Source: an uncultured Planctomycetales bacterium
GTDB lineage: Bacteria; Omnitrophota; Gorgyraeia; Zapsychrales; GWA2-47-8
Reading direction: 5' to 3'
Length of the DNA: 64,000 nucleotides
Assembly: GCA_964499685.1 (NCBI GenBank)
Contig: CAZCLW010000001.1
Location: 28,278-92,277, forward strand
The translations under genes were made by a program, and so were the position numbers. Position 1 is the first letter of the stretch. Each line of letters starts with the position of its first letter. Shown in pieces: positions 3,001 to 27,000 of the stretch. The notes beneath the pieces were generated by a model. That model ran no database searches. It had not been told where the DNA came from and saw only the letters and a list, made by a program, of their open reading frames with translations.

Positions 3001-6000
3001 GGAAGATATTAACATTCCTCTGTCTGACGGAAAGTCGGTACCCGTTCCTAATGAGATGGTGTTTAGTATCGATCCGCAAACCGGTGAGCCCGGAACTTTA
3101 TTTACGCGTTTAATGCCTCAAGCGCCGCTATCGGTTGCCGGCGGCGAATTGGTTATTGAGTCCGGAGACCGGCTGTATGAAGAAATGGGAGTTGTGACCA
3201 GTGCGCAAGGAGAAATCAAAGGATTTGTTCAAGGATCGGAGTGGAAAGCCGAAATGGCACGCCGCGAGATCAGCGGTCCACAGGATATTGTAAGCCGCGA
3301 CATGGAGTCTCCACTTGAGATATCAAAGGTTAAGGGCCGGAATATTTATCATGTTGAGTTTGCGGATATACGTGCTCAGAATCGCGCTTTTGGCCGTGTG
3401 ACGCTTTTTGCGGAATCCAAAGAGCATAAAGGACAGGTAGCGGAAATGTCGGCAGTGTCGGAGTTTGCTATGATCGGCCATGATCTGACCGTCGGTGATA
3501 TGGTGGAGTTCTACAATAGCGCAGAGCAAGGCGGTATAGAGCTTGATATGGCCGAGCAAGTGGTCCGGACCGCTATGATCAAAGAGGGTCTTATCGCCAA
3601 AGAAAATGGACGGTTCGTGACAAAGTCAGATGCGGCCGTCCTTGCCGTTGCCCGCGATGATTCTCGAAGGCTGATACAAGATAATGATCACCGCGCCGAT
3701 CTGGTCGGGCATGAATTTAATCACGGATTGTATTTCACAGATGCCAACTTTAAACAAGGGGTTGAGCAAGTATGGCAAATGCTTGCGCCGCGGGAACAGA
3801 AAGCGGTCAAGGATTTCTTAGTTTCCCAGGATATGTATGATGGAGAAGATGAGGCTTTAGTCATAAGAGAATTTGCCGGTTGGTTCAGGAGTTTGCGGTC
3901 GGTTGACCGCATGGCCGACGGAAAGATATCTGCCTTGCATGATCCCGAGATCAGAAAAACATTTGAGGATGTGGAAGGCATGCTGTTAAGTTTGGAAAAA
4001 GATGTAATGGCCATGACCGCAGAGCCCACCCAGCTTGCCAAACCCGGCCAGACCGGCAGCATTGATATTCCGGACCAGAAAAACGCCGCCATGTTGGGCA
4101 GTGTCGAAGGACAGATCCGTGCGCCGCCGGTTATCGGGACATTGCCGGTTCCTTTTGTTCCTCCCGCACCTGTTCTTCCTCCGGCTATCGGCCTGTTATC
4201 CGCCAGACAGCCGGATTCAGTTGAACTCAGCCAAGAAGCCCTTTTAGCCTCATCGGTCAGCGGCATTTTAGCCCAGCCGCCAAAAAAGACATCTGAAATC
4301 CCGGAAAGACCCGAATTCGTCCGGCGCGTTGAACCTGCTTCCGGCTCATCCGCGGCCAACGATCAACGACAGCGCGGATTTGATCAGCAAAGATCGAATC
4401 CGGCGATGCTGGCCTTGGTGCAGTCCGAACCGCTGTTCGTCGCTCCGTTAGCCAATGCCACGCCTCAGCAGGAGATCGACCGGGCGGCCCGTGTTGTCCG
4501 CAGCGCTGACGATAAAACTTTAACCACGTTATTCACGATTGCCGGTATACCGCCGCAGGAATCCCGGGATTTGATCAATGATATCAAGATCGCCCGCGCG
4601 GAAAACCGGAACGTTACTTTTGATCAACTGCCGCAAGCCCTGCAGGAGCCGCAGGTCATCCAGGTCCTCGCCCGTGGGCCTTTGGAAACGATGCCGATTG
4701 CGAATGAGGATGAACGATTTGAATTCGGGGATGATGCTTCTTTATTATTGACGCGTCACGGACCGTATCTTGAGCTGCAGCCGCACGCTCCGAAACAGGG
4801 ATTAGGAAAATTAATGTATGCCTTCGCGGCCCATAGGGCCCAAGAAAAGGGCCTGCAGTTGCGTTCCGGATTGATCGGTACCGAAGCCTTATCCGCCGAT
4901 GACAAAGCCCGCTGGGAAAACATGGTCGCTGCCGGCCAAGCTGAGATCGTCAACAACCATTATGTGGCCAGACCGGATATAGACATTGTTTTGGCGGGAA
5001 TGGATACAAGAGAATTTTATGATACAAACGCCGCGATGCTCGCTTCTTCCCGGCGTGCTATTCGTCCAACGCAGTCCAATGCCGTTGTCGCGGAAAAACT
5101 GGAGCAATGGGTCGCTGCCCATGATCAAGAACTCCGGCCCATGGCCCGCTTCATCGCCGATAATATCACCCATATTTCGCAAGAGGATTTTGAGAGTGCT
5201 CTGGGTGAATCGGTCGATCAGTTCAACCAGGCGACCCAGGATGAGCCTTATGTGGTCCTTCTGCCGCCCGGCAATAAAAGCAACACCTGGGTCTATCAGC
5301 TTGCGAGAGAAAATAATTTACGCGAACCCGTTGCCGTCCATGTTGTCGGATCCGACTGGCAAGCCGCCCATCCGGACGTAAAGAACGTTGTCCTTATCGA
5401 TGATGCCGCGTATTCCGGCACAAGCACCGTAGGTTCATTATCACGATCAGGCCTCATGGATCCCGATCTTAGCGATGTGAAGGTCCATGTCATTACGCCT
5501 TTCATGACCGATTGGGCCTTGGACCGCGCACAAACCGCCAGAGCCAATGTCAATGTGTACCGGAGCGGCCGTATCAAGACCGTTGACGACATTTTAAGTG
5601 AAGATGAGATAGCCAATGCCGATGGCATCCGTTCAAAGATCCTGAGCCTGAGCGGCGCCACGCCCGGAGAGCTCAGCCGCCAGACGCTGACTTATTTTGA
5701 TCATACGATAGGGGATTCTTTATCGACCCTGTCCTTGAACGGCCACAGCATTTTTGACGGAGCGGTCGTGGATAAATTCGGTTCCAAACAGACCGCTGTT
5801 CCTTTTGTCGAGAAAACAGTCCAGCCTTATCGACAAGGGGCCAACCAAGCGATGCTGTCCTTGCGCTCGATGGACAGCCCGATCTTGTCCAGCCGCAGAG
5901 CTCATCGTTACGCCCAAGCCGTCCAGATGGAACCGTGGAATTGGGAACCGGTCGTTGACAGCATAAGCGAAACCCGGGCCGGGCGGATGTTCGAAAGGGC

Positions 6001-9000
6001 TAAGGATTCTTTAAGAGGCGGTAATTTCCTCAGAGCCAGATTGCAGTTCAACATGGCCAGAATGATGGCGGAAAAGAGCGAACCGCAGCTGGCTGAACGC
6101 GCCAAAGGATTCGCGGACACTATCCGTCGCAGGGATTCAAAGGATCCTCAAACCGAGAGCGCACGTCTCTTGGGATATGAACCGACCGTTTATGATGTTG
6201 CCGATCTTGTTTTAAGCGTAAGACCGGAATTGGCGGTCAAAGTGCTCGAAGAAGATCAGGGGACATTCACTCCGCAGCAATTTGCGGCGACAAGAGATTT
6301 TCTCTTCTCTATTATGCAGCAGCAGGATGAAGAAAGCATCAAACCGCGGTTCGGGCTTGATCATCCGACCCCTGATCCACGCCACATACCGGCTTATGTG
6401 AGCATCTTTATGGCCCAGGTGAGGGATTCCGAAAAGATAGATCCTGAGATCAAACAGCAGGCCTTGGAAGCTTTGGCCGCCATGCCGGAGATCACGCCGC
6501 AATGGTATGCCAAGCACGTTCGCATGGATGCCGAAGTCGAGGAAAGAATGCGCACAGGGCATCGGCCGCTTCTGGCCGCCGGCCGTGGCGTGCCGCAATT
6601 GGCAGGCACTTCCGAACAACCGGCCCGGCCGCCGATTGTTGAAAAGCCGGTCACGGCCTCAGAAAGAGCCGCCGTTACGCAGACAATGTATGACCTGGAA
6701 GACGGCATCAAACAGGTTTCCGATCAAGACAGAGACAGATTATTGATGCAGATGGCTGCCTCTATCGGTCCTGTCAAGGACGAAGAGCCTTCCATCAAAG
6801 AAATGCTGGCCCTGCGCACCATTGCTAAAGTCGCGGAAGGCAAAGATGTCAAACGTCTTTTGCGTGAAGCAAGACAGAACAGTAATGTCGATACTTCTAC
6901 GGTCACGGATGAAAAGATCGAGTGGGTCGCGCAAAGGATCAGCGATGAATTCGGCCCGACATACTCTGTCTGGGGTGCTCCGACGATGATCCAGCAAGCC
7001 CGTAATCAGTTAGGTTTGCCGGACCTTACCAAAATGATTCTTCTTGAGGGCAGGGAAGCGCCTTCTATCGCCGGTAACGCCGCGATGCTGGCTTCAGCCC
7101 GTCAAGCAACGAAAGAACGACTGGTCCGGCTGCAGCAGACCCTGACGAGCGGTGCAAAAGCAGGGCTCGAGTTTGAAGATCGATTGCTTGAAAGCAGCAC
7201 TGGGGATATCACGCCGCCGGCGCATTTGGTCCGCAGGCCTGACGGTTTATATGTGCATATGCACTTGAATGTTCCGGGTGAGGACGGCAACCAAGCTATT
7301 TCTCACGGCATGTTCTTTAAGGTAGAAAAATTATCGCCTGAAGGTGTGGTCTTAAGCGATCCGTTGATGGATGCTTCCGGCGATTTCAATGCTCCGCAGA
7401 TTGTCCGTTTGGAAGATTTCCCTGAATATCAGAAAGAGATCGGCGATGTTGTCCAAGCCGCCGCTCAAACAGTGGGAGGGCGCCTAACTGAGCTCACGCC
7501 TCATTTGCAGAATAACGGCCGCATCTCTTATTTCATGTCGGGCGATGACCTCATGCAAGTCTCCAAAGCCATTCCGCAAAATCTTTCCAAAGGCGCTTTC
7601 TTGACTCCCGACGGAGAGATCAAAGTCGTCGATTTGCCGGCCGGTACGGCGGATGTTCCGTCCATGTTCGGCATCTCGGTCAAAGCGAGCCCCTCGGTTG
7701 ATCAAAACGACGGCCAAAATCGTATGACGATAAACCTGCAGCGTAATGATCCGCAAAAGCCTGAAATGATCTTTTCGAGAGATGTCATTGCGGAAGAACC
7801 GGTCTCGGAGCAGGAAGCCGCTTATGCCGTCTCCATAGCTTTGATGGAATCCATGGCGGAAGAAAAAGAATTACTGGATACAAACACAGCCTATGTCATT
7901 CCGCAATACAGGATCCGCGAAGCCCGTCAGCAGATCGCCTTGGCCACATCCAATGCCGCCATGCTCAGCTGGACGGACCGCAAGGTCAATAACATGGCGG
8001 AAGTGCGTAACACTTTGGCCAAGTCCACGGATCTTTTGGGATTTGAAGCGAATGTTGCGCCGTCTTTGGAGTATCAACAGGCCGTTAATGACCTTATTGA
8101 GTTTTTGAATGAGCAAGGCGTCACACCTCAACGTCTGGAACAAAAATATAAAGAATGGCATGGGCTCCTGGGCGGAACAAAAATCACCGACGCCGGCGAG
8201 TATCAAGAAGATTTTAAGGGCCAGCATCTACAAATTTTTGAGCGGTTGGTCAAAGGTGACCTTAGTCAAAAAATAGACAGTGATCCCGTAGGTGTGGCCG
8301 CGGAAGTTATCGCGGACCTGGTTTACTGGCAGCCTTTCGTGGACGGCAACAGCCGTACCGCTGGTTTACTGGCCAATTATGTCCTGATCAAGGCCGGTCA
8401 CAGGCCGTTTATCCTTGATGAACAAAATATGTCGGTCTACGAGGATATTGTCCGGCTTGAGAGCTTCGGCAGCCTTCGCGGGGAAAAATTGCAGCAGTTC
8501 AAGCAGGCAAAACTCAGGGAATTTCTGGATGAGCAGTTCATTTCTCGTCAGGTCGCCCATCGCGGTTACAGCGTGATCCGTAACGGCGAGAACGGGGGAG
8601 GACAATGGGAGGTCATGCGCGCGCCTGTCAGCATTATCCGCGATCCCGAGGTCCAGCGTTTAATTGAGACAGAATATTTCTCAGAAGATACGGATAGAAT
8701 AGCGGGCGGCGCACTCTTTAGTCCTTCCATTGATGAAGCCAAGGCCCGCGAGATCTTTGGGCAATATAAGGCTTTGCTCGATCACATGTGGAAAACAGGC
8801 AATATCCAGGATGTGACGGTCGATAAATTATTCTTATCGCCGGACGGAAGGGTTTATTATCCCAACTTGGTCACACGCCTTAAGACGGATGTCCACAACC
8901 AGGCCGATCTTTATCCTGCCGTTTTCACGGCGGCTATTCGCAACAAAAACCGGGAGCTTTTAGCGAAAGTTCCGGCATCGGTCCGCCAAGCTTTTGAAAG

Positions 9001-12000
9001 CGAAATGAAAGACTTCCTTACTGGGGATAATTATAAGCGTCTGCGCCAGGGTGGCGCCAACGCCGCGATGCTGGCCTCACTCAACACCAGAGGCCTGGAA
9101 GCTGAACAGATAAAAGAAAAGATTGTGGAACGCAAGCTCGACCGCAAATACGAAGCGGCTGCGCCGGAAATCCCGCTGCAGGATTTGAGAAAATATGCCG
9201 AAGTTTATTTCGGCGAAATGATGGAACCGCAGGAGATGAAGGGCATCCCGGAAGCGGCTGAACAGCTCATTGCCCGCGCCCAGCAGAAGAACAGCGGTAA
9301 TTATAAGAAGACCATTGATGAGGTCATGCACGCCTTTGATCAAGCCATGGACAAAAAACCGGCGGAAGTCACTGCCTTCCTTAATAGTGTCATCACTGAT
9401 GACGATATCAAGCAGTCAAACCGTTTAAGCGCGAGCGCCAAAGCAATTACCGAAAGGGCCATCCGCCGGACTTATGAGGAATTACATCCCGATGTTCAAG
9501 AAAGCATCGTGGCGGTCATCGGCACCGGCAGCGTTGCCCGCGACCGGGCCGTGACCGGCGTTCCGGCTTTGCGCACGACTGCCAGCGATTACGATGTGCG
9601 CGTGGTGGTGAAGGATAAAGAATCGATTGCTTTTGCCGACAGATTTTTTGAATTGCTTCCTCAGAAAATGGAAGCCGAATTGATCGCGGCTGGATTCGAT
9701 AGAAAGCAGATCCGCGCCCAGGACATTTTAGATGTGCAGAAGGTGGATGTGGAAGTTGCTCCTGACAAGAAGGCACTGGGCAAGGTCATCAGAGATATTG
9801 TCCGTTCACAGGTGGCCCAGGAAGGCGTTTCCGCTTACCATGTGGTTGAATTCCGCGAGCAGCCGTCCAATGCCGCGATGCTCTCGGTACCGGCCCGTCT
9901 GTCTTCTTACAGGCCGGTCAATACGTTCGTTCAAAGACCGCTCATTTCGGCCGCGCCCGATCAAATTTTGAAGCAGCAGTGGATCGAGCGTCATCCGGCC
10001 GATATGCGCTCGACCGCCAGGTTTATTGCCGATAATATTCAGCATATTCCTCAGCAGGAATTTGAAAGGAAACTGCAGCGTTCCGTCGCGGCCTTTAACG
10101 AAGAGATCGACCGCCGGCCGTATGTTGCTGTCAGTGAAACCGGCAAGAGTAATGAGTGGGTCTATGAACTTGCCCGCGAACAGGGCTTGAGAGAGCCGCA
10201 GGCCGTGCTGGAACCGGATGAACTTGAGGATTGGCTGAAAGATCATCCGCGCGTGGAAGACATAGCTATTTTCGATGATGCCTCTTATTCCGGAACGCAG
10301 ACTGCCGAGATCGTTAGGACGGCCATTTTGGCTTCGCCGGAAAGGGATGCCCAGGTCCATGTGGTCGTTCCGTTCATGAGCCGCGCCTCGCAGGATATGA
10401 TTATGATCTTTAATCAGAATTCAGACGTCAATTTTTACGATCAACAGATCATACCGACGATTCCGGAGTTGTGGGAAGAGGCTTACGAACAGGCTCAGCT
10501 GGCCAATAATACTCAACGTTTGAAGGAACTGGAAGAAGTCAAGATAGTGTTCGGTGAAGTTTACGGCGTCAATATGGTCCAAGATAAACCGGAGGGTTTG
10601 GCCGGAGCCCCGATGACCTTAACTTATTTTGACCATAAGATACCGGATAATGTTTCCGCGGTCGCCCCGAAGCGCCATGAAAAGAATGTTTTAAATGGTG
10701 TTGTCGTGAACCGTAGCGGTGAAATTACGGCGAACGTTCCGTTCATCCCGGCCGTCAAAGAGCCGTATGCCGGTAAATATATGGCCTGGGTCGAAAAAGA
10801 ACATCCGGAGATTGCCCGGTTTGTCGCATCGGAAGCGCAGAATCGAAGACCGGCCGCCGCTAACGCTGCCATGCTGAGCAACCGGACCCTTGAAGCGATC
10901 GCCGAACGTATTGCGCCGCAGCCGCTCAGCGCCGAGACGCAAAGAGAACTGGCCAAACTGGAACAGACCCTTGTCCATTCGCCGCATTTGGTCAGGTTCA
11001 GCGGATTGACCGTCGCTCTGCCGGAAACAACGGAAGGCCGGACAATACAATATACCGAGAATGACCTCAAGGCGTTAAAGCGGAATTACTACATCAATGC
11101 CATCCAGAAGGAAGCCCGCAGCCAGAAAGTTTTGCGCGATGTCGTCCTCAAAAGGGTCGATGCCTTGACTCCTGTTGTGGATGTCCTCTCCAAGGAATTT
11201 GCGACCAATGACTTGTTAAAAGAAGAAATTGAAATAGCCGATCCCGAGATCCTCTGGGTCGGGTTAAAGGGAAGCGCCTTGTGGGGCGTTAAAGGAAAGA
11301 AGAAAGAGGACATCGATCTTGTCGTCATGGTCAAAGGTGATTTCACCAACCGCCGTTTCTTTACGATCCCTTCGGCCAATTTCGGACAAGAGGTCATCGA
11401 TCATTTGAGAGAGAACTACGGCGAAGATATTACGGATACCAAGATCCAGATCAACATCATTTCCGACAAATATTTGACCGATCCCGGGTTTGTCGCCGGG
11501 ACCGACAAGCCTTCCCGTAAACGCGTCCAGGAACGGTTGATATTCTTGAGTTCCGTCGCCGATACCACCCTGCCGATCTACAGCAAATTTGAGCAAAATC
11601 CTTTTGATGATATCGAGCTCCATCCCTGGTTACTCTTGGCCCAGGCCGAAAGCCTGATCCATGATGCTCAGCGCTACTTGCAATCAAACGACCATGACCC
11701 GCGTTATGCCGAGCTCAAAGTCGATAAACGGTTGATCGAGGCGGAATTGGCCATTAATTCCATTATGGCCCAGGCCGAGAATCAGGGGATACGGTACAAC
11801 GGTGAGGTCGGCATCGTTCAGCACATGAAAGGCGTTTCACCTCTGAAGCAAAGATTGATCAATCTTCAGCGCAAGGTCAATTTTGTTAAGACGAAATTAC
11901 CCGAATTGGTCAAAGAGCGCGAGGCCTTGTTTGAAAGCGAGGCCAAGACGATCATCGGCCGCGATACATCTATATTGGCTGCTCGTCCGTTGGCATCCAC

Positions 12001-15000
12001 CGAAGGATTTGGTCACGATAACTGGAACAGCCATTTTGACATTGCCGCCAAGGATGAAGGCCGGCGGGTCATCACAGAATTTTTAGATAACGACCGTCAT
12101 GCCTATGTCGGTTTTGGGGATATGTCCAAGATCTCGGCCATGGACAAGGGCTCTGTTTCCCGCCTGGTCGATATTCTTGTTCCTTTCGAAGTCAGGTTCA
12201 TGGATGAAGAATTGAAGAAATACGGCGGCCGGGCCGTGCGTCTGATGTCCGATGAGATCGTCCCGATCTTGCCGTCGAACCTGTCTCCGGGGAAAGTCAA
12301 TGAGATCCGTATGGATGTCCAAAAGAAAGTTTCCGGCCTGATCGCCAACCGTTTCGGCCAGGCGCTGGTCAAGGGTGTGACCGAAGAGAATGTTGAGGAC
12401 ATCCGCCGGGCCGTTCAGGATAACCTCGGAGAGGCCATCTTTGTGGATCTTTATAAAGATGAAGACGGCTATCATATCGTTTTTGACCGTCAGGGTGAGG
12501 ACCTTGAGACGGCGTTTGAGAACAGTTTGACACTTGTTAACGCCGGTCTTGCCGTTCAAGGCCGGGCTGATCTGGAATTAAGTCGCACCGACGCTAAACC
12601 CGTGAGCATGCTGTATAACGGCCGGCAGGTGCAGGTTGATCTGAGCCGTCCCATGCCGGTCTATTCTCCCAAGATTGCTTTTGGCTTTGACAAGGCCGCT
12701 GAGGTCACAAGTGCGCAAGACGGTGCTGAACCGAAATATGATGCTCAAAAGTCTTTTGACCGTGTGGTCAAGCGCGCCGAGTATATTTTGAACCGTTCCA
12801 AAGAAGAGGACAGGGCCGGTGGCATGTACACGGATTTTGCCGATGAACTGGATGAATTCAGCGCCGGAAAAACAGCGACGTTGCCGGCGCTCGACGTGGA
12901 AGAAAAGTCATCCATGGTCCGTCGTCTGGCGGCCGCCGATATCCGCCTGGCCCCGAACATGATTGAAGATTATCTGCCGGTCTTCAAGCGCACCGAATTG
13001 GGTTCCATCTTAAGACAGTTGATCGGCCACGGCGGCGTGACATTGATGAAGGCCGATATCCGTTATATTCCGCAAGGAAAGACGGCTGCCAAGGTCCAGG
13101 AATTATTGACCCCTGACCCGCAGACCGGTAAGGCCAAATTCACTTTGGATACGTTGCGCGGAAAGCAGAACAGCGACGGAAGCGTTGATTTCGGGTTCAA
13201 GATGTGGAATGAGACCAAAGACCACGGTGACGCCAATAAGACCCTCTTGGGTATCGTCAACAGCATTAATGAAGGCTTGAAAGAAGAAGGCGTGCGTGTG
13301 GCCTTGACCAGCCGCGGCCCGCCGGATGAGATATATATCGCCTTTCCTGCCCATCTCCAGAGATTTAATGAAGAAGATTATGTCCGCATCATCGACCGTA
13401 TACAGAAAGAGATCAATGAGGCCCTGGCCGGAGAAGCCGCGGTCAGGATCAATGCCGCCGTTGTTGAGAGCCGTACGGTCGGCACCAACGTTTCCGATAT
13501 CATCACCACGGCGGATAAACTGACCAAGATCGAAAATGCCATTGCCCCCACCGTTACTCCTCAAGGCAACAACATAAGGACATTCAGCATAGAGCCGGCT
13601 TCCCGTGACGCTTATAAGGATGAAGTCGCTGCTTTGCGCGCCTTCAACCGCGCCAAGGCCCGGCTGATCCTGGCGGAAAATTATGGTAACGGCGAAGAGA
13701 TCATCCAGACCAATGCCGCGATGTTGGCCGCCCGTCCTGAGCTGCAGATCCGTACTGTCAATAACTTCACGACACAAGGCGAATTACGTTCTTACGCCCG
13801 CGAGTTGATTGATTCCGGCGAGCAGCGTCCGGTGTATGTCTATGACCCGAACAACGGCAAACCGGTCCTGCGCGTTGCTGATACCCTGCAGATGAAGATG
13901 CCGGATTTCGTCGAGAAAGACGCGATCGTTCTAGCACCGGTCGGCCGTGTCGATGCCTTTGCCGGACCTGAAATGCGTTCTCTTATTCAGCGCGCTGACA
14001 TTGATGAGCGCGCGACTACGTTGGCCAGCTTGGGTATTGTCCGCAGCAATCAGCCCATACATTCGGTCGTGATCGAAGGCCGCGACCTGGTCGTTCTTCA
14101 TCCGGCCCAGTTCACTGACCGGCAAAAAGGATTTATCCAGGCCTTGATCGAGGCGCAAAAAGCCAAAGGTGTCGCCGTTGACATGGTCGCCTTTGTGGCT
14201 GAAGAAAGCCCGGTGCTGATCGATGGCAAGGCCAATATGTACGCGACCAGCGACGGTCAAGAAGCAGGAAAGAGCGTTCTGTTCATCACGCCTGAGTTCG
14301 TCGAAGAACAGGTCAGTTATTTACACAGATTTACCTATAATCAGGGTCCGCAGTGGGCCCGGGATATCGCCAGACCCGACATGCCGTTCGGTCTGGATAT
14401 TTTCAGCGGTCAAAACGCCAATAAGGTCAAAGAAGAGATCGGCAAGATCAAGATCCCGTTGACGAAGGTTGATTTAACCACCGAAGAGATCCTGGCCAAG
14501 GCTTATCCGTCAACTCAAGAGACCCGCATTGTCTCGCGTGATATAGTTGATCTTCCGACGGTGGAATTAAAGACGCCGGAACTTCCGCTCATGCCGGCAA
14601 TCGAACCGGCCGCGCCTATGCCGGTGCAAATGCCGGCGCCGGTTACCATGCCGGGCCTGGTTTCAGCCCAGAGAACGAATGCTTTTGAACGGCCGTCTAC
14701 GATCGCACGGCCTCCGGCAGAACCGCTCCAGATTTCTTTAAGAGAACCGTTTGATTGGGTTCAATACAGAAAAACTTCCAATGATCCGAGCTTTGGCGCC
14801 TCCACCTACGCGGGTTCACGTGTCATCCGCGAATTAAGCCGCGGATTTGTGACGACCCTGGAAGACCGGTCGAACCGTGCCATGCTTTCCATTCCGGCCC
14901 AGGTGCGGCCGCTGCCTCCGGATGCTATAAAGAATTTCATTTCCGCTGTGTTCAACGAACGCCGCGTGCCCGGTCTCTTGCGCATTTATGTGGCCCGCAC

Positions 15001-18000
15001 CACGGCGGATGAGAAGGCGAGCGCAGAAGAAGGCCGCATTGTCCTGCGCGCCAAGACCGAAGAAGAGTTGCCGCAGGCGACGTTAGCCATGATCTCCGCC
15101 GGTCTGGACAAAGGCTTATTCAAGCCGAACCAAGTCAGTGAGCTTATCACCGAAGATGATTACCGTGCCGCTGCCGAGGAGATCGGCCTGCATCCGGACG
15201 ATGCGCTTGAGTTCTTCCTGAAAACAGACCATCTGGCCGTTGTGTATGAAAAGACCGGTCCGGATATCGGCACTTACCTTAAATATGTCGCCAAAACAGA
15301 CAGCGGCCGTGAAACAGTTGCCCAGGCTTTAGCTGAAACTCTGGCGGAATTCCATCAGGACGGCATCGTCGGTCAAGGAAACTTGAAGCAGTTTGTGGTC
15401 TTGGATACAGAAGCAAAAGATATCGCGGTATTGCGCATCGGTTTCGATCGGGAGGAAGGATTAACAGCCGAACAGGAGATCGCCGCTCTTCGCGTGGAAT
15501 TACAAGAATATCCGCTGGCCCTGGTTAAGTTCAATGATAGCTATACTGTTGCGATCGCCAGACAAGCAGTACCTCTTAATAACTTCTTCGCAGGAAGAAT
15601 GCCGACCGCTTCTGTCTTCACCGCGATCGAACCGGGCATCCTGCCGGTCCAGCCGATCCTTCCTGTACAGCCGCCATTGATGGCGCCTATAGGCATTATG
15701 CCTATGGTTGAAGCCGGTTCCGCTGCCAACAGCGCCATGCTGGCGAATGTAAAATCCGGACTTGAAGAGGTCATCGCTAAAATTGAGAGCGATCAGCATC
15801 TTTTAGGTAAGCCTAAGTTTGAAGTTCGCGACATCCAGCGCCGCTTGGCCGAAAGTTTGATCACCGGCAAGATCGGTATTGCCCAGAATGCGGCGGGTAA
15901 GACCTTGGCCATATTCCTGACAGCTTTGGAGAAAGCGAAATTTGGAAATAAAAATGTCACCATCCTTACGTTGGATGAAACGTTCTCAGGTGAAGTTGCG
16001 TCTTCCAAGATCCCCGGCGGCTTGGCCCAGTCGTATCCGGATATGGTCGCCGGTGTTATCGAAGGCGGCCGGCTGGTCGACCTCGATAGGATGGTCAATG
16101 AATTCGATGATCTGCGCAGCAAGGGCGAGAATGCGCAAGCCGCCCGTGTCGCCCAGGAGATCGCCCAGGCCCTGCTCGATAAGAAGGCGATCAAGATCGT
16201 TTCGCTCAATACCCGCGGCCATATGCCGAATAAATTCACCGAATTCCCGCAGGTCTTGCTGGGTCTCAAGGCGATCAAATCACAGAACGGTGTCACCATC
16301 CTCGACGAGGTGGACGATGCGTTAAACCGCGAGGTTACCTACATCGTTTCTCTGGATGCGGAGATCTCCAAGAGCCCGGCCCTGCAGAAGGAAGTCGCCC
16401 AGGCCGAGCAATTGTTCCAGATGCTCAATCTGGAAGGCATTGCCGAATTGCAAGGCACAAGTCATCAGCCGCGCGGTGCCCTGATCAAGCGCGCCAGGAC
16501 CTTGGCAGATTTTGAAAGATTAAGCGCTGGAGGGGAACCCGCGTACTGGATCGGATTGCAGGGTAACAGTATTTTGACCGGACAGAGGGAATTCCTTTTG
16601 AGTGATGCCGTCTTCAGGACCTATAAAGATTTTGATCAGCGTTTGATCAATGATATCGCCCGCGGTATCGCGACCGAGATCGGTACTGAACTCGACGTGG
16701 ATAACAGCCTGTACCCGACCCAGCTCGTGCCGGTCTTCAAGGGCGGCGAAGTCCAGCCGGACATGCTTTCCAACAGTCTGGCCTTTAAAGTGGCCCAGAC
16801 GCTTAAATACAATGTCATTCATAAGGGCGAAGGCCGGCCGCTTAAAGTCGAAGCGATCCGCCTGTCCAAACGGCTGATCCGTGAGAACCCGATCCAGGAA
16901 ATGTTCACCGGTGATCATGAGATCATCGGTGTTTCCGCGACCGATGCGGGCGCGCGCAGCATTATCCAGGTCAAGACCGGTGCCAAGGACATTGTCCGGG
17001 CGGATGAAGGAAGCGACTTCTTCACACAATTGACCCAGGCCAAAGGAACGCGTAAGGCCATTGATATGCTGCCGCAAGAGGCCGATGTTGTGGCCCAAGC
17101 CGTCGGCCTTATTAAGGAAGCGTTTGAGAATGCAGACGGCGAGCGCGGTGTTTTGATTATCACTAATAATCCGAATGATCAGCAAAAGATATTCAAGGCT
17201 TTAGCCGCTTCCGATGAATTCAAGAAAGCCGTGGAAGAGTTGGGTGCCCGGTTGGGCGTTCAGCTGACCGTCGCCGAGGTCTTGCGTGAAATAACCGGAA
17301 GCACCAGCAAAGAAGAGATAAGCGGCAATGAAGAAAAAGGCATCAAGGGCCTGGTCAAGCTGACCGGCGTCAACAAGGACAATGCCATTCCGCACGTCGT
17401 GGTGGCCGTGCCGCGCGTGGCCAAGCAGTTCAGCTTCGAAGGTGATCTGGATGTCGTTATTGTCGGCGCTGAAGGGTTCACCCGCGACTTCCTGACCCAC
17501 GCCGTCAACCGCAATACCCGTGCCGAAGAGGATCAGGGCCGCAAGATCGTTCTGGTCAATGAAACGAGATTACAGGAAAATCTGCAAGTGGCCAATGATG
17601 CCCGCGAGGACCTCAGGGACCTTGGGGATGCCGAAGATATGCGCAAATTGGCGCAGGAGCTTGCCAAATTCAACGACGAGTATAAGAGATATACAGATGA
17701 TGAAAGACAGGCGAAAACAACCGAGATCCTGACGAGACAATTGGCCCTGAATGCCGATTTCCTCCAGTTGAACCAGACATCGGCCACGCATAAAAATACG
17801 ATCCTCACTGTCTTCAGGAATACCCGCATGACCACACCGTTGCAGGCCCTTTTGGACAGCGGTGAATTGAGCGCCACCGATCGTGCGGTCATCGAAAAGA
17901 TCAAAGGTCAGGAAGAAAGCGGCAAGTATCTGCCTCTGCAGCGATTATTGGATGCGCCGGTCGCCGGGAACGAATTTGTCCGCATGGCTTCACAGGAACT

Positions 18001-21000
18001 CTGGCAGTCGGCCATTGCCATGTTCAATGAATTGTTAGGTCCGGTCATTGTCGAACAGGAAGGTAAGGAAACGAAAGTCGCGTTAAGCGATAAGGGGCGT
18101 TACAAGGTCCAGGCGCTTTTGGATGTTGCGACCTCGCGCATGGTGGCGGAGAACGCCGAGTTCGATGTAGCCAAGACTTCCCGCGACGGGTTGAATCAGA
18201 CCCTGCAGGACCTGGAGCTCAATTCTTTTGATGTGGCGACCGGAAGAGACGCCGCCCAAGCCGACCGTATCGCCCAGGAAGGTCTGGATAACCACCGTAA
18301 AGTTTTGGAAGTCGCCAAGTATTTAGGGCAGGAGATCTTGCCCAGCCGTATCAGCCCGTCCTTTACTCATTCGAACCCGGTGGCCCGCTGGTCGGATAAG
18401 CATTCCACTATCGCCCAAACCGCCGCCGCCAAGGTCGGTGATATTGCCGGTATCCTGCCCGGCTTGACTGCCGAACAGCAAATAGCTTTATTGAATATCT
18501 TCAGCGAAGACGAACGCGGCCTCTCCGTCGGAGAAGGACAGGTCCTGACCAACCGCGGCCGTCAGGTCATCGAGATGGTGCAGGCCATGAGCCGCGATGG
18601 TTCCATTCCGCGCGACGGTGTTTATGCCTTGCAGGTCTTGACCGGTTTTGACCGTTCACGCGAAGAGATCGCTTCCGCCGATCAGGAACAATTGACGAGG
18701 ATCGCCTTTGATATCGCTTTGCGTTTGGTCGATGTCGGTTTGGCGGATCTTGCGCAAGCCAGGCAACTGGCCGCCATGGTCACATTCTGGCAAGAACGTC
18801 ATGTCGGTTCAGATCAGCGTCCGGCCCAGGAACGTTTGGCCGCCTTGAGCAAGATCGCCATTGAGCACAGTTTGAAACCGTATCGCCTTTCTCTGGCGGT
18901 TGCCGACTTTATCGGTGTCCCGGCGAACGATCCTGCGTATAACGGTATCCTGAACATGATCGCCAAGGGCGATCTTGACCGGTTGAATGAAGAATTGCGC
19001 ATACAATCCGTCCAATTGAGCGAGCTCGAAAACGGTTGGCAAATATTGTGGCACAACTTCTTCGGTATCGGCCGCGACTTTAGGAAAACCAGCAAGGAAT
19101 TTGCAAAAATAAGTAACCCCACTAACGCCGATATGGCAAAATTGCATCAGGAAATATTTGCGGGTGATCCCAATGCGCCGGAGTTACTGGAGTTTGTGCG
19201 CATTGCCGGGATTGATTCGTCCATTCCTGTTCTTGGGCTTAGTTCCGGCGTGGATAGTATAAAAAACATTGAGCGGGCCCAGCATACTTTGAATATCCTG
19301 CAAACCAATGTTCCCGAATGGCTGGTCGAACAGAAACTGGATCAGTTGGCCGCTGCTCTAGATGACCCGAGATTTTTGCCTGTCTTCCTGCCGGATCTCA
19401 AGAAATTTTATAAGAAGAAACCCAATGATCTTATTGAGACGCTGACGGTGCTGGATAAAGTGATCATGGCCGGCCTTACCGATAAGATGGTAAGCAAGGT
19501 TTATAAGGATTCCGGCGCCCGGCAGACCTTCCGTCAGACACCGAGGATCAATTTAGGCATCAATGAATTTATTGAACATGTCCGCAAGGAGCTTTCTTCG
19601 CCTGAAAAGCAAGCGATCGCCTGGCAGATCGCGGCCGGCCGCGCAATTTCGGAAGCGCAGATCGAGGAGATCAAAACATCTTTAAGCGTCTTGCCGACGG
19701 AGGTAAATAAGGGATTATCTTTGGCCGATGCCATTGAGGCGATCGATGACTTAAAGAAATTGTCAGCCATCGTAGGTAAGTTTAAAGAAAAGAAGCCCGA
19801 AGAAATTACGGACCGCGAACAGTACGCGGATTATGTTGCCCGTCGGGAATTGGGCGAAAGATTGGGCTGGGAATTGACCATGGCCCGCTTGAACGAGATC
19901 GGGCTTTCTATTCCGGGACGTTCTCCTGTCCAGAGCCTCCGTGTCTTTGCTTCCGAAGAAGAGAATTCACCGCTCGCCCAGATTACCAGAGAACTTAAGT
20001 CCGGCCGTATTATGGCCGAAGGCGGCCGCATGGTCAGCATATCAACTTCCGATGATAAAGAAGGCATCGAGAATATTTTGGCCGTAAGGCAATTGGTCCA
20101 TAAAGGGCAGTGGCCGCGCCATATCAGTCAGGTTACCGTGACAAAAGACGGCGGCTTCTTCAAGGTTATCCGCAATAGCGAAACCGGTGAAGTCCAAAGC
20201 ATCCAATTAAGTCCGGCCGCGCTCAAACATTTTGAAGGTTTAGCGAGTGTTGTTGCCGTGGCCACCGAAGCCAAAGAGAAACCGGCATCTCAGCAGGCGC
20301 TTGTTTTGGCCCAGGCCGTGCGTAAGTTAATGACAACGGAAGAAAGCCTGCCCGAAGATATTAAAGAGATTGCGGCCGTTGCCAATGCCTTTGAAACCGC
20401 CCAAGCCGGTCAAGAACATGTTAAGGCCGCTGAAAAGGCTCTGGAGATCGTTGCCGGCATTAATAATAGAGAAGCCGGTTCGATTACGGCTGAAGAAAAA
20501 GATTTGGCAGCCCGGACCATCAAGCGCGTTGTCATGGATCCGGAAGAAGGAAGAGAGTTGGCTAAAGCGGAAGAGATTGCTGCGAGCGAAGCAGATAAGG
20601 ATGACGATAGCGACATTCAACCCCCGCAAGCCAAGCGTTCCGGCTTTGGCCGCTTCTTCGCGAAGTATTTTGGTATGTTAACTTTGGCGGCGCTCTTAGC
20701 AGGAAGTCCTCGTGCCGTTGCCAAAAACGTGGCCGCGGCGGAAGCGAAGCTGGTTCAACAGGAAGCTGCCCTAGCCGCTTATGAAGCCACAGCTCCGCCG
20801 GCCCGATTGGCCGAGTCGATCAAGCCTCCTCTGCCTGAAGAAGATTTGACTGAAAGCCTTATCACGCCTCTGGCGCCGAATGTGCCGATCGAGATCCAGA
20901 TACCTCCGGCCATCATGCCGCCGGCTGTATTGCCGGCTCCGATCCTCAATTTGGGTGCTATCGGACCGCTTAGCAAGGCGGAAGTACCTCTAAATACCAC

Positions 21001-24000
21001 TCCTATAGGACAAAGCGAGCAAGACCATAAGAACCGGGCTGTTCCGCTGCCTGCACCGATCACTTTAGCCAGTTTACCGGCCCCTGACGGCGGCACAGGT
21101 GGCAGTGGCGGCGGCTCAGGCGGTTCAGGCGGTTCGGATCCTGGTGCCAGCCCGGCCGGACCCAGCGGAAAAGCCAAAGCCCCGAGTGCTTATGTAGAAT
21201 ATGCCCGGGCCAAGGCGGTCTCTGCTCAGGATATTTTGAATTTAGTCTCTGTTAAACCCAATACCACCCGATTTGACGTAGTTAGACAGTCAGACAAGGA
21301 TCACCGTACCAACTTCAGTAGAAGTGGTACCAGCCCAACAATTATCCGCGCTGTCGCCCTCTCCGCAGAGGGTCAGACAGGGCAAAATGCAGTAAGCGCG
21401 GAAAGCAGCATACGTACTGTAACAGAAACAGATGCAAATAACGTCAATGTAGCTAAGTCATTGAGATCCATCAGCTTAGGCGAAATGGGTCAAAGTGACG
21501 GAGTTTCAGGTTCGAGTAGTACGCCTCAAGAAGCAGATGCAAACGTTGTAGAAGTTGCTTCAAATACTGTAAAAGTTGTGGGTGTAGAAGTTCGCTCTTT
21601 GGATCAAGCTGGTAATAAGTTCGGCCGTGCGCCGTATGCCATGATCTTGCCTTCGGCTATTATAGAGAAAGCAGGGGAAAGCGTGCTCCGCGTGGTTGAG
21701 GCTGCTACCGGTGCGATTCAGGCTGTACCTAGTACAAATGCAGTAGAAGTAGTTGTGGGTAGTGGTATCGTTTCAGCCCAGACCGGTGCTGGCAACAGTG
21801 CCGCCAGGACTGAAAAACAAGCGTTACCTAAGGTTCAAGAAGTACGTCCAGTTGCAGAAGCAGAACGTAATAGAAACAGATCCAGACTTGTCAAGGATGC
21901 TCTCAAGCAATTGAGAGGTACCGCTGAGCAAGTCAACCGTATTGTAAAGGCTGCACGCAGTAAGCAGTATCGCTCTGTCAGTGGACATCGTGAAGTCACC
22001 ACAGCTGCTGCCGATAACTCCGGAGACGGAGAAGTTGGCGGGGATGCTGAAGATGCAAAACGTGCTTCCCGAGCTGTCGCTGATACTAACGTAGAAAGTA
22101 TCTCTGACAAAGGTACATATCAGATTCTCGGAGTGCGCGCTGAAGAAACAAGCAAGCAAGCCGAGATCAAGTTCTTGAAGTCTGCGAGCTCTACCGGAAG
22201 TGAAATAGAAGGTAGAGATTCTGTCTTAGGTTCGAGGACTGTTACCAATGTCGGATTAAATAATAGAGACGAAGTAAAGATCCAAATCGCTGACGCAAGA
22301 TCAGCTGAAATTCTCGGAGTGCGCGGAAGTGAAGAACGCGAAACTGCCGGGAATCGAGTTTTAGGAAGTGTGTCCGGAAGCCGCAGTAATCCTGCCAAGA
22401 AGCTCATCCGCTTCTTCAATTCCATTGTTGCGTCCCTCAATCAAGAAGTAGCCCGTAACCTGATCGCGTTCATCATCGCCATCAGCGTTGTTCTGTCTTT
22501 ATTGAAGCACGTTCAGCAAGGTCGTGCCCCGAACGTCGTTGTCCGTACGATCCGCATGGTTGTTTCTACAAAAGACCTGGTTGGCAAAGCTTTGGCTTTC
22601 GCCGGCCAGGTCTTCTTATTTAACCAAGCCGAACAAAATTCAAAAGGAGGTACCATACTATGGTTACCGTCAATACGCTCCAAGCAACAGAAAGCTACAA
22701 CAGCCTCAGTTTCCGTTACCTCGTTGAAGTCCCAAAGTCAGAATGCTTCTTTGGCTCAGCCAGAGACCAGCAAGGCAAAAGCCACCTCTTCCTTATCTTT
22801 AACGACGGCCGCACGTACGCTCGAAACGGCCTTCGAAGCACGTGGGAAGAGATCACGCAAACAGCCGATTACGACAGGATCCGCGGACTTGTCAGCAACG
22901 CCATTGCCAACAAGACAGTCCCGCTTTATTCAACAAATCGGCTCAGGCTTAACTAAAGTAACTAAGGCCACTGTAAAGAGCATCCTATCTACCGTGGCGG
23001 GTATCGGAGCTCGTACAGTGGTTATGGCAGGAGCAGTTCTATTCCTGGCTGCTCCTGCCTTTGCGCAAGCTCAGCAACCGTCAGCGCTGATTGCTGCCAG
23101 CTTCCTTGGCTTATCCACCAATACCTGGCTGGTTGTCGGGGGAGTTCTGGTGGCCTTTGGCGCGATTTTAGCGGCCATTAAGTTGTTCAAATACTTCCGT
23201 AACTTAAGCGACAAAAAGAAGCTTTGGACCAACAGTGTTCTTATTACGCTTCTCCTTGCCCTGATTACAGGCATGTTTGCAGGAGCCATGCCGCCAAATA
23301 TGTCGTCGTCTCATCCGGCTATAGTTCCAGTTAATCATCAGGCTGTCCAAGAACAAGCGGCCTTGAACAATGTTGCCCAAGAAGTTCAGTTGAAGTACTT
23401 CGAGCTCATCAACGCCGCCATCAATGATCCGGCAAGAGTCGCTCAATTAAGAGCCGAATTCGAACAAAAAGCTGCGGCGATCCAAACTTTGTCCGGTACG
23501 CTAGGCGGAAACTTAACTGTGAATATGGCTCTCCTGGATGAACAGCTCCAAAACATCCAGAATGTCAGAGATAGACGAGCCGCGGTCCAGGCTGCCCAGG
23601 AAGAAGCTGAAAGGATCGTGGAACTCAACAGACAAGCTGCCGCGGACGCCGTCCGTATCGCTGAAGAACAAAGGATCAACCGGACATTCGGCGGCAATGC
23701 TGATACCGTTCCGACGCCGGATCTTCGCGAGGCGGTCTACAGCACCTTCTTCTATGATTACAACCGCCGTCAATTATTAGAGAAATATTTCGGCAACGCT
23801 ATCAGCTATGAACGCGCCGTCCTGACCATGGCCAGACGGTTAAGCGCTCTGAGCCCGTATGTTGTCTTAGAAGACGGCCGCAGCGGTTTGATGGCCATCC
23901 CGGCCAACGTTTGGGAAGAAGTCATCGCCGGTCAAACCATCCGCACGGGACGCAACGCGACACCGGTTGTTTGGACCTATCAAGACAGATTTGACGTTAA

Positions 24001-27000
24001 TAAGAATGTCGCCGTCTTCACCGCTTACTTTGAATCCAAGATCAGAGCGGTCGAAACCGCGCATCCGGAATTAAATAAAGAAGAGGTCCTGAAAGAAGCC
24101 TTGCGCTTGGTCCAAGCGGCCTTTGCCGAGATCAATATCGAAGAAGCGATCGCCGCGGCCCAGAACAACAGATTGCTGGTCGAGATCCCGCGTGAGACCA
24201 GAAAAGCCAGAGAACTTAATTTAAATTACAATGCCCAGACCGCTCAGGAGCACTTAGAGCAGGTCCGTGTTATCGAAGAATTCACCCGCGATCCGGCGGC
24301 TCGCATGGCCGAAGTCATCACTGAATACCACACGCGCACCGATAAAAATATCCACCTGGTACTGGATGTCGTCGAAACCGCTCAATACGAACAAGGCCTC
24401 TTAGGTGTCACCGAACCGGCCGCTTATCTGGTCTACCGTGAACAGATCGAAAGCGGCAAGTTCAAATATAACGTTATCACCTTCGACGGTTCGGTCAAAG
24501 AAGTCCCGGCTTCCGAACAGGCCGAGATCGAAGCTGTCTTCAACCGCATTGCCGTGAATGCCGAACGTAAAGTCGGCGAAAGAGATTTCGTCCTGGTCGC
24601 TTCCCGCGAAGATCTGCTCAATTTAAGAAGCACAGAAGTCCAGAAGAAGCTCAACAAGCTCTTCATGCAGTTCAATGCCCAATTGGGCTTGAACGCGGCT
24701 GAGAACATCCTTGTCTATTTCGCCGAATATCCGATGTACCACTTCGTCGAAGGCCGTGAATTCGAGGCCCGCCGCTTCTTCGATTCGAACGCCGTCAACG
24801 ATCTGCTCAGAGAAGACACCTCCGCGGTCAACGGATATAAGGAAGAAGCCGATATCTATGACGGCCTGATCGGCTACCGCTATACTGTTCCGGAAAATAC
24901 GCCTGTCTACGCGCCGACAACCGGTATCGTGGTCAAGGCCGAATTGGATCACTTGAACAATTATGTCATCACCATCCGCACGATTGGATTCATGTTCACC
25001 ACGATCGATCACACCTTCGCCCATTTAGGCGCGTTGAACATCAAGGTCGGCGATGCGGTCAGACAAGGCAACCTGATCGGCGTTGCCGCCAAAGAACAAA
25101 CCGGCACAAACAGTTCTTACTTCTACGCCCAGCAGATCATCACCAGGGACGGTGCTAAGACCGTGGATCCGGCTGAGGCCATCCACTTGTTCGGCCCGAA
25201 CCCGTACACAGTCGTTTCTCAAGATTTCGTCAGGAACGCCGGTCTAACCCAGATCGCCAGGGATGAAGAGCAGACCTTCGCCACGAGACTGCAGGAATTG
25301 GCCGAAGCCCGGGCCCAATTGGAACAAGACCGTAGCGACGCTATTGAAGAAGTGAAGGAATATTTTGAAAGTGCCTTATCGGCCGCCATGGATGCGAACG
25401 ATGTCCGCGATCTGGAAGAAAAATTAAGAGTCTACTTAACGGCCTTAAATGCTCCGGCCGGTGCCGCCGAAGAAGTCATCGCTGCTGCCGCCACAAGACG
25501 CGAAGAAACAAGAGTCCAGCGTCATGAAGAACAGATCAACGTCGCCCACGGTGTGGTCGCGGCTCTGGCTGATGCCCGCAATTTGGCGGTCGACAGCATT
25601 GTGGAAAGCATCTTAAGACGTTATGCCGAGGCCCATCCGGAAGAGTATCAGAAAGCCACCCTGAAATTCCAGGCCGGATACAATTCCAACCCGGCCGGCG
25701 GTATCCCTGGATTATTCTTAGGCAGCCCGACCGGCTTCGGTGCCGGTATCTATCTCGATCATGAATTCGCCCAGTATATGGAACTCATGGATATGGCCTT
25801 CGGTATTGATGATCTGGCCAGCGCCTCCGCGCTCAATCAGGCGATCGGCTGGGCCTTCTACGCCCGCGCCGTTGCTAACACCATCAACGCCATCAGAGCT
25901 TCCGGTGTTGCGGTTCCCGAATACGGCGGCTTCTATATCAATTCACAGAAATCGTTCCTGGATCCGTCCAGAATATTGGTCGATCTTTCCAGCAGCATGA
26001 TCGGTAATCCGTATATCGCGGTCAAAGACGGCGAAGGCAATATCGTGGATATGCGCGATGCCACCATGATCAAATTGACCATTCCGAACCTGTTTGTTGA
26101 TCTTCAAAACTGGATCCAGACCAATGTTCTTGGCCGCATCCCGATCGTCGGACCGCTCTTCGGCGATCCGGACAAAGATCAATATTACACCTGGACACGT
26201 CCGGAATTCCCGGTCGTGTATGTGCCGGGCAAACGCGACCTGCAGTTCATGCAGATGGTCATGAACGAGACCGATTTTGAGAATTTCCAATATAGAGTTC
26301 GCCGCGGTGCTGAAAATGAAGTCTTCGTCATCGACGGCAAAGAATATCCGGCCAAATATTTCGTGTTCGGTTACCGCTATGACCTGCGGAGATTAGAAGA
26401 AACCAACGGCAGAGAAGGTAAGTACCTCTATACCATCTCCGCCCGCTACTTTGAAGAGAATGAACAAGAAGGCCCGATCGCCGGGGAATTCCTGAACCAT
26501 CCGACCAACGCCATCTGGAGAATGGAACCGGGTCAAGAAACCGTTCTCCTGCCGCCGCAGCAGATCTTCGAGCAGGTCATGAAATTGGCCATGGTCCGCC
26601 GCGGTGTCGATGCTCAAGGACGCACCATCCTGGCCGGCTTGCAGCATCCGACGACCGGCGACATCTTCGAAGTCCATTACAATCAGTTGCCGCGCACTGA
26701 AAATGTCCAAGGCTTCCGCAGCTCACAAGACGGTTTGAGCCGCTTTACCTCCGAAGCCAAGGTGAGAATACCGGTCGATCCGACAGCCCGCTTCGGCGAG
26801 AACCCCAACGGCGAATCGGTCTTCGCTAATGTCGTCTACAGCGTCCCGGCCCTGCAGCAGGCCTACTTCTTTAACAACAGGACCGCTGCCAACGAAACCG
26901 CCCATATCCTGAAATATCAATTCAAGGGCCGCGATGCTCAAGGCAACGATGTCTATGAATTCATCGGTGCCCAGCCCATCACGGTCGATCCTAAGACCAT

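Follow-up and report, generated by a model that had tools for sequence, protein, structure and literature searches.

A conserved SecA-like ATPase module with a family-specific helical extension in a giant protein of Omnitrophota

Divergent SecA DEAD domains that lack the scaffold and wing of SecA are present in most giant proteins of Omnitrophota, and the role suggested for them is export of the giant protein itself; SecA-like domains also occur in some actinobacterial giant proteins (West-Roberts et al., bioRxiv 2023, 10.1101/2023.11.21.568195). Among the long proteins of Omnitrophota, a PF07517 architecture cluster of 20 proteins has also been reported (2026 preprint, 10.64898/2026.06.07.730766). 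Here we analysed 64,000 nucleotides (nt) of DNA from an uncultured Planctomycetales bacterium that GTDB places in Omnitrophota (assembly GCA_964499685.1, contig CAZCLW010000001.1, positions 28,278 to 92,277; hereafter the window), in which one giant open reading frame (ORF) contains an ATPase module. A first-pass annotation of the DNA had read this module as a SecA-like motor and considered it unusual inside a giant protein; for this lineage the claim of rarity is wrong, given the domains described by West-Roberts et al. A SecA-like motor in Omnitrophota giant proteins and the idea of self-export are already published. What may be new, and it is modest, is a family that lies below Pfam detection and its conserved helical partner domain. 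With moderate confidence we interpret the module as the core ATPase of a SecA-type motor, a very divergent one, which, together with an inserted domain and a helical domain, would export the giant protein in cis; self-export is the leading putative function.

The module is a superfamily 2 (SF2)-type two-lobe ATPase with intact catalytic motifs. The motif set (Q, Walker A GKT, DEVD, SAT and RNTR) is complete at amino acids (aa) 5277-5853 (nt 15830-17560), and every element listed by the first-pass annotation, namely motif I, VTILTLDETF, motif II, SAT and an Arg-rich motif VI, is present in the translation of this segment. The conserved unit is longer than first reported, at about aa 5238-6463 (nt 15713-19390) or some 1,225 residues, roughly twice the original segment. 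The stretch shared with relatives is aa 5238-6315, and it reaches 6463 in the closest ones (phmmer extents on the giant protein: 5238-6198 for P0001, 5280-6313 for P0002, 5255-6315 for P0003, to 6465 for P0005 and 5248-6463 for L002p). Its parts are as follows.

nt 15713..19390 (aa 5238-6463), + strand: whole conserved module, the SecA-like motor and its family-specific helical extension, as delimited by phmmer against relatives
nt 15713..15859, + strand: N-terminal helix and invariant Gln, FEVRDIQRRLAESL, paired with the F-D-V-Q-L segment of SecA ahead of the P-loop
nt 15881..15928 (aa 5294-5309), + strand: motif I (Walker A), AQNAAGKTLAIFLTAL, with Lys5300; invariant G and K, with T/S kept, in 14/14 copies
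nt 15956..15985 (aa 5319-5328), + strand: motif Ia-like strand VTILTLDETF; the SecA counterpart is VHVVTVNDYLA
nt 16190..16237, + strand: IKIVSLNTRGHMPNKF, with S164 invariant in alignment A1; paired by hhalign with ITYGTNNEYGFDYLRDN of SecA
nt 16298..16351 (aa 5433-5450), + strand: motif II (Walker B), ILDEVDDALNREVTYIVS, that is ILDEVDDAL with Asp5435 and Glu5436, then strand TYIVS leading into the insertion; the SecA counterpart is VDEVDSILIDEARTPLIIS
nt 16349..16882 (aa 5450-5627), + strand: inserted alpha/beta domain of about 180 aa in lobe 1 (model residues 213-390), located where SecA has its preprotein cross-linking domain (PPXD)
nt 16880..16951, + strand: return strand RENPIQEMF (SecA ITFQNYF) and motif III IIGVSAT (SecA GMTGTA), from hhalign and the motif table
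nt 16922-16951 (aa 5641-5650), + strand: motif III, IIGVSATDAG
nt 16991..17560 (aa 5664-5853), + strand: RecA-like lobe 2, with model strands and helices at residues 427-616
nt 17144-17170, + strand: RGVLIITNN, in lobe 2
nt 17393-17443, + strand: motif V, HVVVAVPRVAKQFSFEG, with RGxD substituted
nt 17489-17560 (aa 5830-5853), + strand: motif VI, FLTHAVNRNTRAEEDQGRKIVLVN, including THAVNRNTR...GRKIVLV, with Arg5837 and Arg5840
nt 17561..19390 (aa 5854-6463), + strand: conserved all-helical C-terminal extension of about 600 residues, from alignments A3 and A4

The distances between the catalytic residues resemble those of E. coli SecA. Lys5300 and Asp5435 are separated by 135 aa (about 101 in SecA), Asp5435 and Ser5645 of motifs II and III by 210 aa (about 180), and Ser5645 and Arg5837 by 192 aa (about 185), which bears out both the SecA-like spacing and the insertion of roughly 200 aa between motifs II and III that had been noted at first. 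The segment around the Gln ahead of the P-loop (Q42, invariant in alignment A1) is paired with residues 79-100 of E. coli SecA by BLASTP and hhalign alike, and an AlphaFold2 model places a helix at residues 3-30 of the N-terminal segment.

Exhaustive phmmer against 1.84 billion representatives found 17 relatives of the module (E 6e-97 to 2e-4). Eleven of the 17 are longer than 1,000 aa, the longest having 7,198 aa, and the remainder are short fragments. For 7 of the 10 relatives looked up, the source name is Candidatus Omnitrophota or Omnitrophica, and 7 of the 8 looked-up relatives with a source name are marked partial. A locus scan with a 3-sequence alignment added one copy, carried by an ORF fragment of 6,959 aa from Candidatus Zapsychrus exili (L002, JAVCCJ010000121.1). 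In all, 19 other large proteins were counted with the conserved unit, and nearly all of those with a source name are Candidatus Omnitrophota. The giant ORF of this fragment (2-20878) stops about 3,000 aa past the SecA-like module. Some 2,000 aa upstream of the module it encodes another SF2 domain, this one clearly of helicase type (aa 1304-1440; DEAD 4e-9, ResIII 1.5e-6), and near its C-terminus it has Peptidase_M23 and an SLT lytic transglycosylase. Two marginal stretches aside, the module is the only part common to the relatives and the window's protein. A word-indexed protein search, with either the sequence or the family alignment, returned none of the relatives, against 17 by exhaustive phmmer. 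Searches of NCBIfam, of PDB by phmmer and of phages by tblastn with the single module sequence gave nothing useful, and two metagenome scans for the module found nothing.

The relatives were compared in alignment A1 (12 sequences) and in a motif table of 14 copies. Invariant or nearly so in A1 are the Gln ahead of the P-loop, the P-loop Gly-Lys, the Ser of IKIVS-x-NTRGH and the Asp-Glu-x-Asp of DEVD (D198, E199 and D201 of motif II). Across the 14 copies the positions Q, GK[ST], DE, [ST]A[TN] of motif III and RNxR of motif VI are kept. A chance cluster of motifs is ruled out by the 17 relatives, with E down to 6e-97, and by this conservation in 14 copies.

The resemblance to SecA comes from the predicted fold and from end-to-end profile alignment. 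The AlphaFold2 model of aa 5238-5900 (nt 15713-17701), built on A1, has a predicted local distance difference test score (pLDDT) of 79.4 and a predicted template modelling score of 0.76. It consists of two alpha/beta lobes, with the alpha/beta domain of about 180 residues inserted past the strand following DEVD. When the model was compared with PDB using Foldseek, each of ranks 1-11 was a SecA structure, with E from 4e-12 (1tf2) to 5e-9. The best template modelling (TM) score, 0.55, was with 6itc_A, which is SecA engaged with SecY; 5eul_A gave a root-mean-square deviation of 6.7 Å. The first non-SecA class was DinG (7e-9), followed by UvrB (1e-6) and RIG-I.

In hhalign the family profile aligns with SecA end to end, with a global score of 35-39 (P about 1e-6). 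None of the E. coli controls UvrB, RhlE, DinG, Mfd, RecG and RecQ exceeds 3.8, and SecA in reversed, shuffled, domain-permuted or PPXD-deleted form stays at or below 8. The SecA profile used is nearly a single sequence, since the indexed search with E. coli SecA yielded only proteins at least 89% identical to it. The alignment pairs the following segments of the family with SecA: Q and P-loop with Q and P-loop; IKIVS-NTRGH with YGTNNEYGF; DEVD..TYIVS with DEVD..TPLIIS; ENPIQEMF with TFQNYF; GVSAT with GMTGTA; RGVLI with GQPVLV; VAVPRVAKQ with IATNMAGRG; and NRNTR with GRSGR. Lobe 2 matches lobe 2 of Mfd by profile and is collinear with lobe 2 of SecA. The family profile also matched SecA2 of M. 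tuberculosis (4uaq) at E 3e-4; isoelectric points did not discriminate. The architecture and the predicted fold of the module are SecA-like.

Both additional domains are conserved in the family. The cores of the inserted domain are LLSxAVYxxF, LVPVxxGGEVQ and KVAQTLKYN. In the C-terminal extension the most conserved motif is S-x-SHKxTILTxFRNTRxTxPxQ (nt 17780-17845), which falls within a helix predicted to span 47 residues. The model of the extension has a pLDDT of 59 overall and 70-89 for residues 40-270.

The giant protein around the module was examined for domains, membrane-like segments and cysteine. Frame 2 of the + strand is free of stops from nt 2 to 64000 (21,333 codons) and runs past both ends of the window. 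Walker A patterns occur only twice in the whole 21,333-aa protein. Its other features are listed below.

nt 2..64000, + strand: host giant ORF, a single uninterrupted frame with Pfam domains scattered along its length and no cysteine codon
nt 5102-5560 (aa 1701-1853), + strand: PRTase-CE (Pfam E 1e-15)
nt 8258-8386 (aa 2753-2795), + strand: Fic/DOC (Pfam E 1.8e-6)
nt 22448..23290 (aa 7483-7763), + strand: first membrane cluster, four transmembrane-like segments, about 1,020 aa downstream of the module
nt 24872-25108 (aa 8291-8369), + strand: Peptidase_M23 (Pfam), between the first and second membrane clusters
within nt 34502-64000, + strand: run of nucleotide-sugar and signalling enzymes, NTP_transferase, CofD x3, NUDIX, HAD, PGM/PMM I-IV and HATPase_c (Pfam), downstream of the second membrane cluster
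window end, + strand: PALP (Pfam), interrupted by the end of the window

A Kyte-Doolittle scan found no membrane-like segments in aa 1-7482, and clusters of them at aa 7483-7763, 11690-13180 and 20082-21035; the module is thus sited upstream of the first cluster. Enzyme domains alternate with these clusters, which suggests that the giant chain crosses the membrane in blocks. By the positive-inside rule the loops at aa 7503-7660 and 7728-7744 would be inside, and the chain past aa 7763, with Peptidase_M23, outside. Should the first segment be a genuine membrane helix, the ATPase and all of the first 7,482 residues would lie outside. In the relatives from Zapsychrus and P0005, hydrophobic segments start at the module's end. 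In the window's protein phmmer found no significant conserved link joining the module to the first membrane cluster, and only marginal matches at aa 7050-7381 (nt 21149-22144, + strand). That stretch, between module and cluster, is common to P0002 (aa 4007-4141, independent E 6e-4) and L002p (aa 4895-5213, independent E 1.4e-3), matches that a repeat phmmer run did not reproduce, and might be a partner of the motor near the membrane.

The NUDIX, peptidase and sugar-enzyme content of the host protein matches the 'Archaeovorin' type of West-Roberts et al. PRTase-CE and Fic/DOC, which are domain types typical of effectors in inter-organismal conflict, are both in the N-terminal part, where membrane-like segments are absent. 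Further downstream the ORF contains a recent tandem duplication, nt 43565-46435 and 47702-50566 on the + strand (aa 14522-15478 and 15901-16855). Each copy has a CofD domain; the repeat period is 4137 nt (1379 aa), and across 957 aligned residues the identity is 98.4%. Older diverged copies of the unit (45-62% identity) lie at aa 13292-13493 and 17726-17937.

The giant ORF has no in-frame TGT or TGC in its 21,333 codons, versus 986 and 478 in the other two frames of the + strand. Proteins with the same module contain 0 to 0.1% cysteine: the counts are 1/6959 in L002p, 3/4551 in P0002, 2/4890 in P0004 and 7/7198 in P0007, and 0 in P0001, P0003 and P0018. The module itself is free of cysteine, as it is in 11 of 12 relatives. 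Proteins exported unfolded typically show strong selection against cysteine, and a giant protein without cysteine is consistent with export in the unfolded state. With no cysteine in 21,333 residues, neither the Zn-binding C-terminal tail of SecA (SEC-C, PF02810) nor an iron-sulfur domain of the XPD/DinG type is possible. Cysteine goes unmentioned in both preprints on Omnitrophota giant proteins (West-Roberts 2023; 2026 preprint).

The same lack of cysteine, zero here and near zero in relatives, would also fit a different topology, in which the whole giant protein including its motor is exported and the ATPase uses ATP of a prey cell, for example to pull an effector chain into the prey. The positive-inside reading permits the N-terminal part to be outside, Fic and PRTase-CE are typical of delivered effectors, and in the view of the Aravind group such giant proteins are arrays of prey-directed effectors (PMC12419801). 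We consider delivery of the motor into prey very improbable: it comes from inference alone, the topology prediction is crude and such predictions are reported as unreliable for these proteins by West-Roberts et al., and a delivery apparatus is not visible in the window.

For a SecA-type motor acting in cis, the following mechanism can be proposed. ATP would be bound between the lobes by Lys5300/Thr5301, Asp5435/Glu5436, Ser5645/Thr5647 and Arg5837/Arg5840. Through the hydrolysis cycle the lobes would open and close and the inserted domain would move, jointly forming a clamp on unfolded polypeptide. The family-specific helical domain of about 600 residues would stand where SecA has its scaffold, wing and two-helix finger. 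The motor may then feed the downstream membrane segments and the long M23-bearing stretch into or across the cytoplasmic membrane, the probable channel being the cell's own SecYEG. Since the motor is covalently tethered, the giant protein itself would be its most likely substrate. A polypeptide substrate, action in cis, coupling to SecYEG and a location on the cytoplasmic side are what we infer beyond what the analysis shows, namely the conserved motifs, the SecA-like predicted fold and collinearity, the lack of a detectable SecA C-domain and the position of the module ahead of the first membrane cluster. Export in cis is consistent with the established ability of SecA to translocate large periplasmic loops of membrane proteins (PMC9192764) and with the proposal of West-Roberts et al. 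A bolder version, which we put forward tentatively and think doubtful, is that the module represents a new class of SecA-derived motor, with the 600-residue partner as substitute coupling domain, which threads its own cysteine-free chain of more than 21,000 residues into or through a membrane.

Several results weigh against this assignment. The Pfam SecA models are all below threshold on the window's copy, on the relatives and on the family consensus. The hmmscan proposed at first (SecA_DEAD, SecA_PP_bind, DEAD and Helicase_C) accordingly gave no SecA model on the window's copy: its one Pfam match is DEAD, at E 0.03-0.05 (13.9-14.4 bits versus a cut-off of 26), and it covers only the P-loop. 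Among the relatives SecA_DEAD (PF07517) is the sole specific Pfam family, in 2 of 12, sub-threshold (best E 0.0037); the match in P0010 (16.2 bits versus a cut-off of 24.6) is restricted to the P-loop, and SecA_DEAD was not recovered with the family consensus against Pfam. SecA_PP_bind, Helicase_C and SecA_SW had zero matches in the window's copy and the relatives. Compared lobe by lobe, the similarity is generic SF2, with lobe 1 scoring 42.4 with RecG versus 41.2 with SecA, and the lobe 2 profile 39.6 with Mfd versus 23.1 with SecA. Mfd is also the top PDB profile match overall (5.5e-5), and the Foldseek margin of SecA over DinG is just about three orders of magnitude. The RGxD of motif V is lost in most of the 14 copies.

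The accessory domains and the topology add to these objections. At the sequence level no resemblance of the inserted domain to the PPXD of SecA could be detected (hhalign 18.4 versus a null of 15.6). Its profile found no SecA in PDB, the lone match, to myomesin, being due to chance, and SecA_PP_bind (PF01043) matched 0 of 12 members. The domain of about 180 aa sits exactly at the position of the PPXD, as the first-pass annotation had noted. The extension, by its low-confidence model or by sequence, shows no likeness to the SecA scaffold, wing and two-helix finger (PF07516). Foldseek of the extension model (pLDDT 59) against PDB found unrelated proteins at a best E of 0.23, hhalign against SecA gave 18.1 versus a null of 17.3, and a PDB profile search gave no SecA match and weak TALE-repeat matches that look spurious. 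With the scaffold, wing and finger undetected, no counterpart was found of the SecA region that touches SecY and drives the chain forward, which is the main weakness of the assignment; this result agrees with the giant-protein SecA-like domains of West-Roberts et al., which have no scaffold and wing. Lastly, applying the positive-inside rule to the first membrane cluster is not enough to put the N-terminal 7,482 residues in the cytoplasm. By sequence criteria, membership of the SecA family is not established. The motor reading of the first-pass annotation therefore holds for the fold, the collinearity and the two-lobe SF2 core, but not for recognition by Pfam SecA models or for lobe-wise sequence, which is generic SF2.

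The generic SF2 character at the level of sequence, with DEAD at 0.03-0.05 and Mfd, RecG and RecQ scoring locally on a par with SecA, raises the alternative of an SF2 nucleic-acid helicase or translocase, with an accessory domain in lobe 1 as in XPD/DinG (Arch) or UvrB, acting on DNA or RNA and possibly one of many effectors in a prey-directed multi-enzyme protein. DinG (7e-9) and UvrB (1e-6) are close behind SecA in Foldseek; every helicase nevertheless ranks below SecA in the fold search, and none of the six helicase controls is collinear with the family profile. The family consensus weakly matches Cas3-like_C_2 (4e-4) and Helicase_C_2 (0.013), whereas Helicase_C is unmatched throughout and PADLOC and PHROGs (defence-system and phage helicase families) gave no match. 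Walker B is DEVD, as in SecA, rather than DEAH or DEAD, there are no cysteines for an XPD/DinG iron-sulfur domain, and motif V, the link between nucleic-acid binding and hydrolysis, is degenerate. The separate, clearly helicase-type DEAD/ResIII domain in the Zapsychrus relative and the conflict-type domains PRTase-CE and Fic of the host are in keeping with a helicase, as are the top matches in BFVD, which are helicase-like proteins of giant viruses and phages. On balance we regard a nucleic-acid enzyme as unlikely.

In the viral structure library the model comes closest to DUF3638 domain proteins encoded by giant viruses (Hokovirus, Megaviridae; E 5e-9, TM 0.43-0.47), which are large uncharacterised P-loop proteins. 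Two defined helicase types were rejected. A DEAD-box helicase (PF00270 and PF00271) does not fit the gap of 210 aa between motifs II and III, versus about 30, nor the sub-threshold DEAD match and the absence of Helicase_C from the matches. An iron-sulfur XPD/DinG helicase does not fit DEVD in place of DEAH, the zero cysteines of the module or the failed global alignment with DinG.

That the membrane- and channel-contacting domains of SecA are undetected, with a different conserved helical domain instead, would also be expected of an ATP-driven switch or unfoldase, descended from SecA but re-purposed to order folding, assembly or proteolytic processing of the giant protein without membrane transport. 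The module is about 1,020 residues from the closest membrane segment, and West-Roberts et al. note both a role distinct from canonical SecA and C39 and S8 peptidase domains that may cut giant proteins. However, nothing positive favours any specific non-translocating role, and the hydrophobic segments at the module's end in Zapsychrus and P0005 fit a membrane-linked job. A switch or unfoldase thus seems to us quite unlikely, more so than a helicase.

The SecA-type motor acting in cis bears on how cells insert or export parts of polypeptides of 20,000 to 150,000 residues, a problem for which tethering of a motor to the chain is the one concrete clue, already proposed in the literature. The divergence of the family hides it from Pfam, so surveys by domain may under-count such motors. 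The helical domain of about 600 residues, which accompanies the motor in every case in place of the SecY-contacting parts of SecA, is the obvious candidate for the coupling device, and the catalytic residues for mutation are now defined. Were the module instead a helicase, the idea of self-export of giant proteins would lose its main support.

Among known systems, the module can be compared with Mfd and RecG. Mfd is the best PDB profile match (5.5e-5) and matches both lobes weakly, and RecG is the top local match for lobe 1, but both lack an insertion after motif II, their global scores are 3.5 and 1.8, and the 50 PDB matches listed by Foldseek include neither. DinG/XPD (6fwr, 9ii8), the second-best fold class (7e-9), share the SF2 core and a large domain, the Arch, in lobe 1 between motifs II and III. 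They differ in a DEAH Walker B and in an iron-sulfur or equivalent second insertion, whereas the module is cysteine-free, and the global profile score is 0.9.

SecA itself (1tf2, 6itc, 5eul, 1nkt; E. coli b0098) shares with the module two RecA-like lobes, a Gln ahead of the P-loop and GKT, then DEVD followed by a strand into a large insertion in lobe 1, a return strand, motif III and a double-Arg motif VI at similar spacings. It is the best fold match and the sole end-to-end profile alignment among the seven SF2 proteins compared. The module, however, is only about 13% identical to SecA and lies under every Pfam SecA threshold, with an insertion that is not recognisable as PPXD by sequence. 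The scaffold, wing, two-helix finger and Zn tail are undetected in it, and a conserved helical domain of about 600 aa is present instead. SecA is a free protein of 100 kDa, whereas the module is embedded in a chain of over 21,000 aa. Mycobacterial SecA2 (4uaq), a reduced SecA without the helical wing domain and with a special set of substrates, is the best SecA sequence match of the family profile (E 3e-4). It differs in being a free protein that retains the scaffold and two-helix finger and is readily recognised by SecA models.

The giant-protein SecA-like domains of West-Roberts et al. are a further close counterpart. Those were detected via Pfam SecA_DEAD and SecA_PP_bind, whereas the present family lies under these models, and its conserved helical extension is undescribed in both the 2023 and the 2026 preprint. 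Like them, the module is very divergent and without scaffold and wing, has relatives in Omnitrophota, and is internal to a giant, multi-enzyme, membrane-spanning protein.

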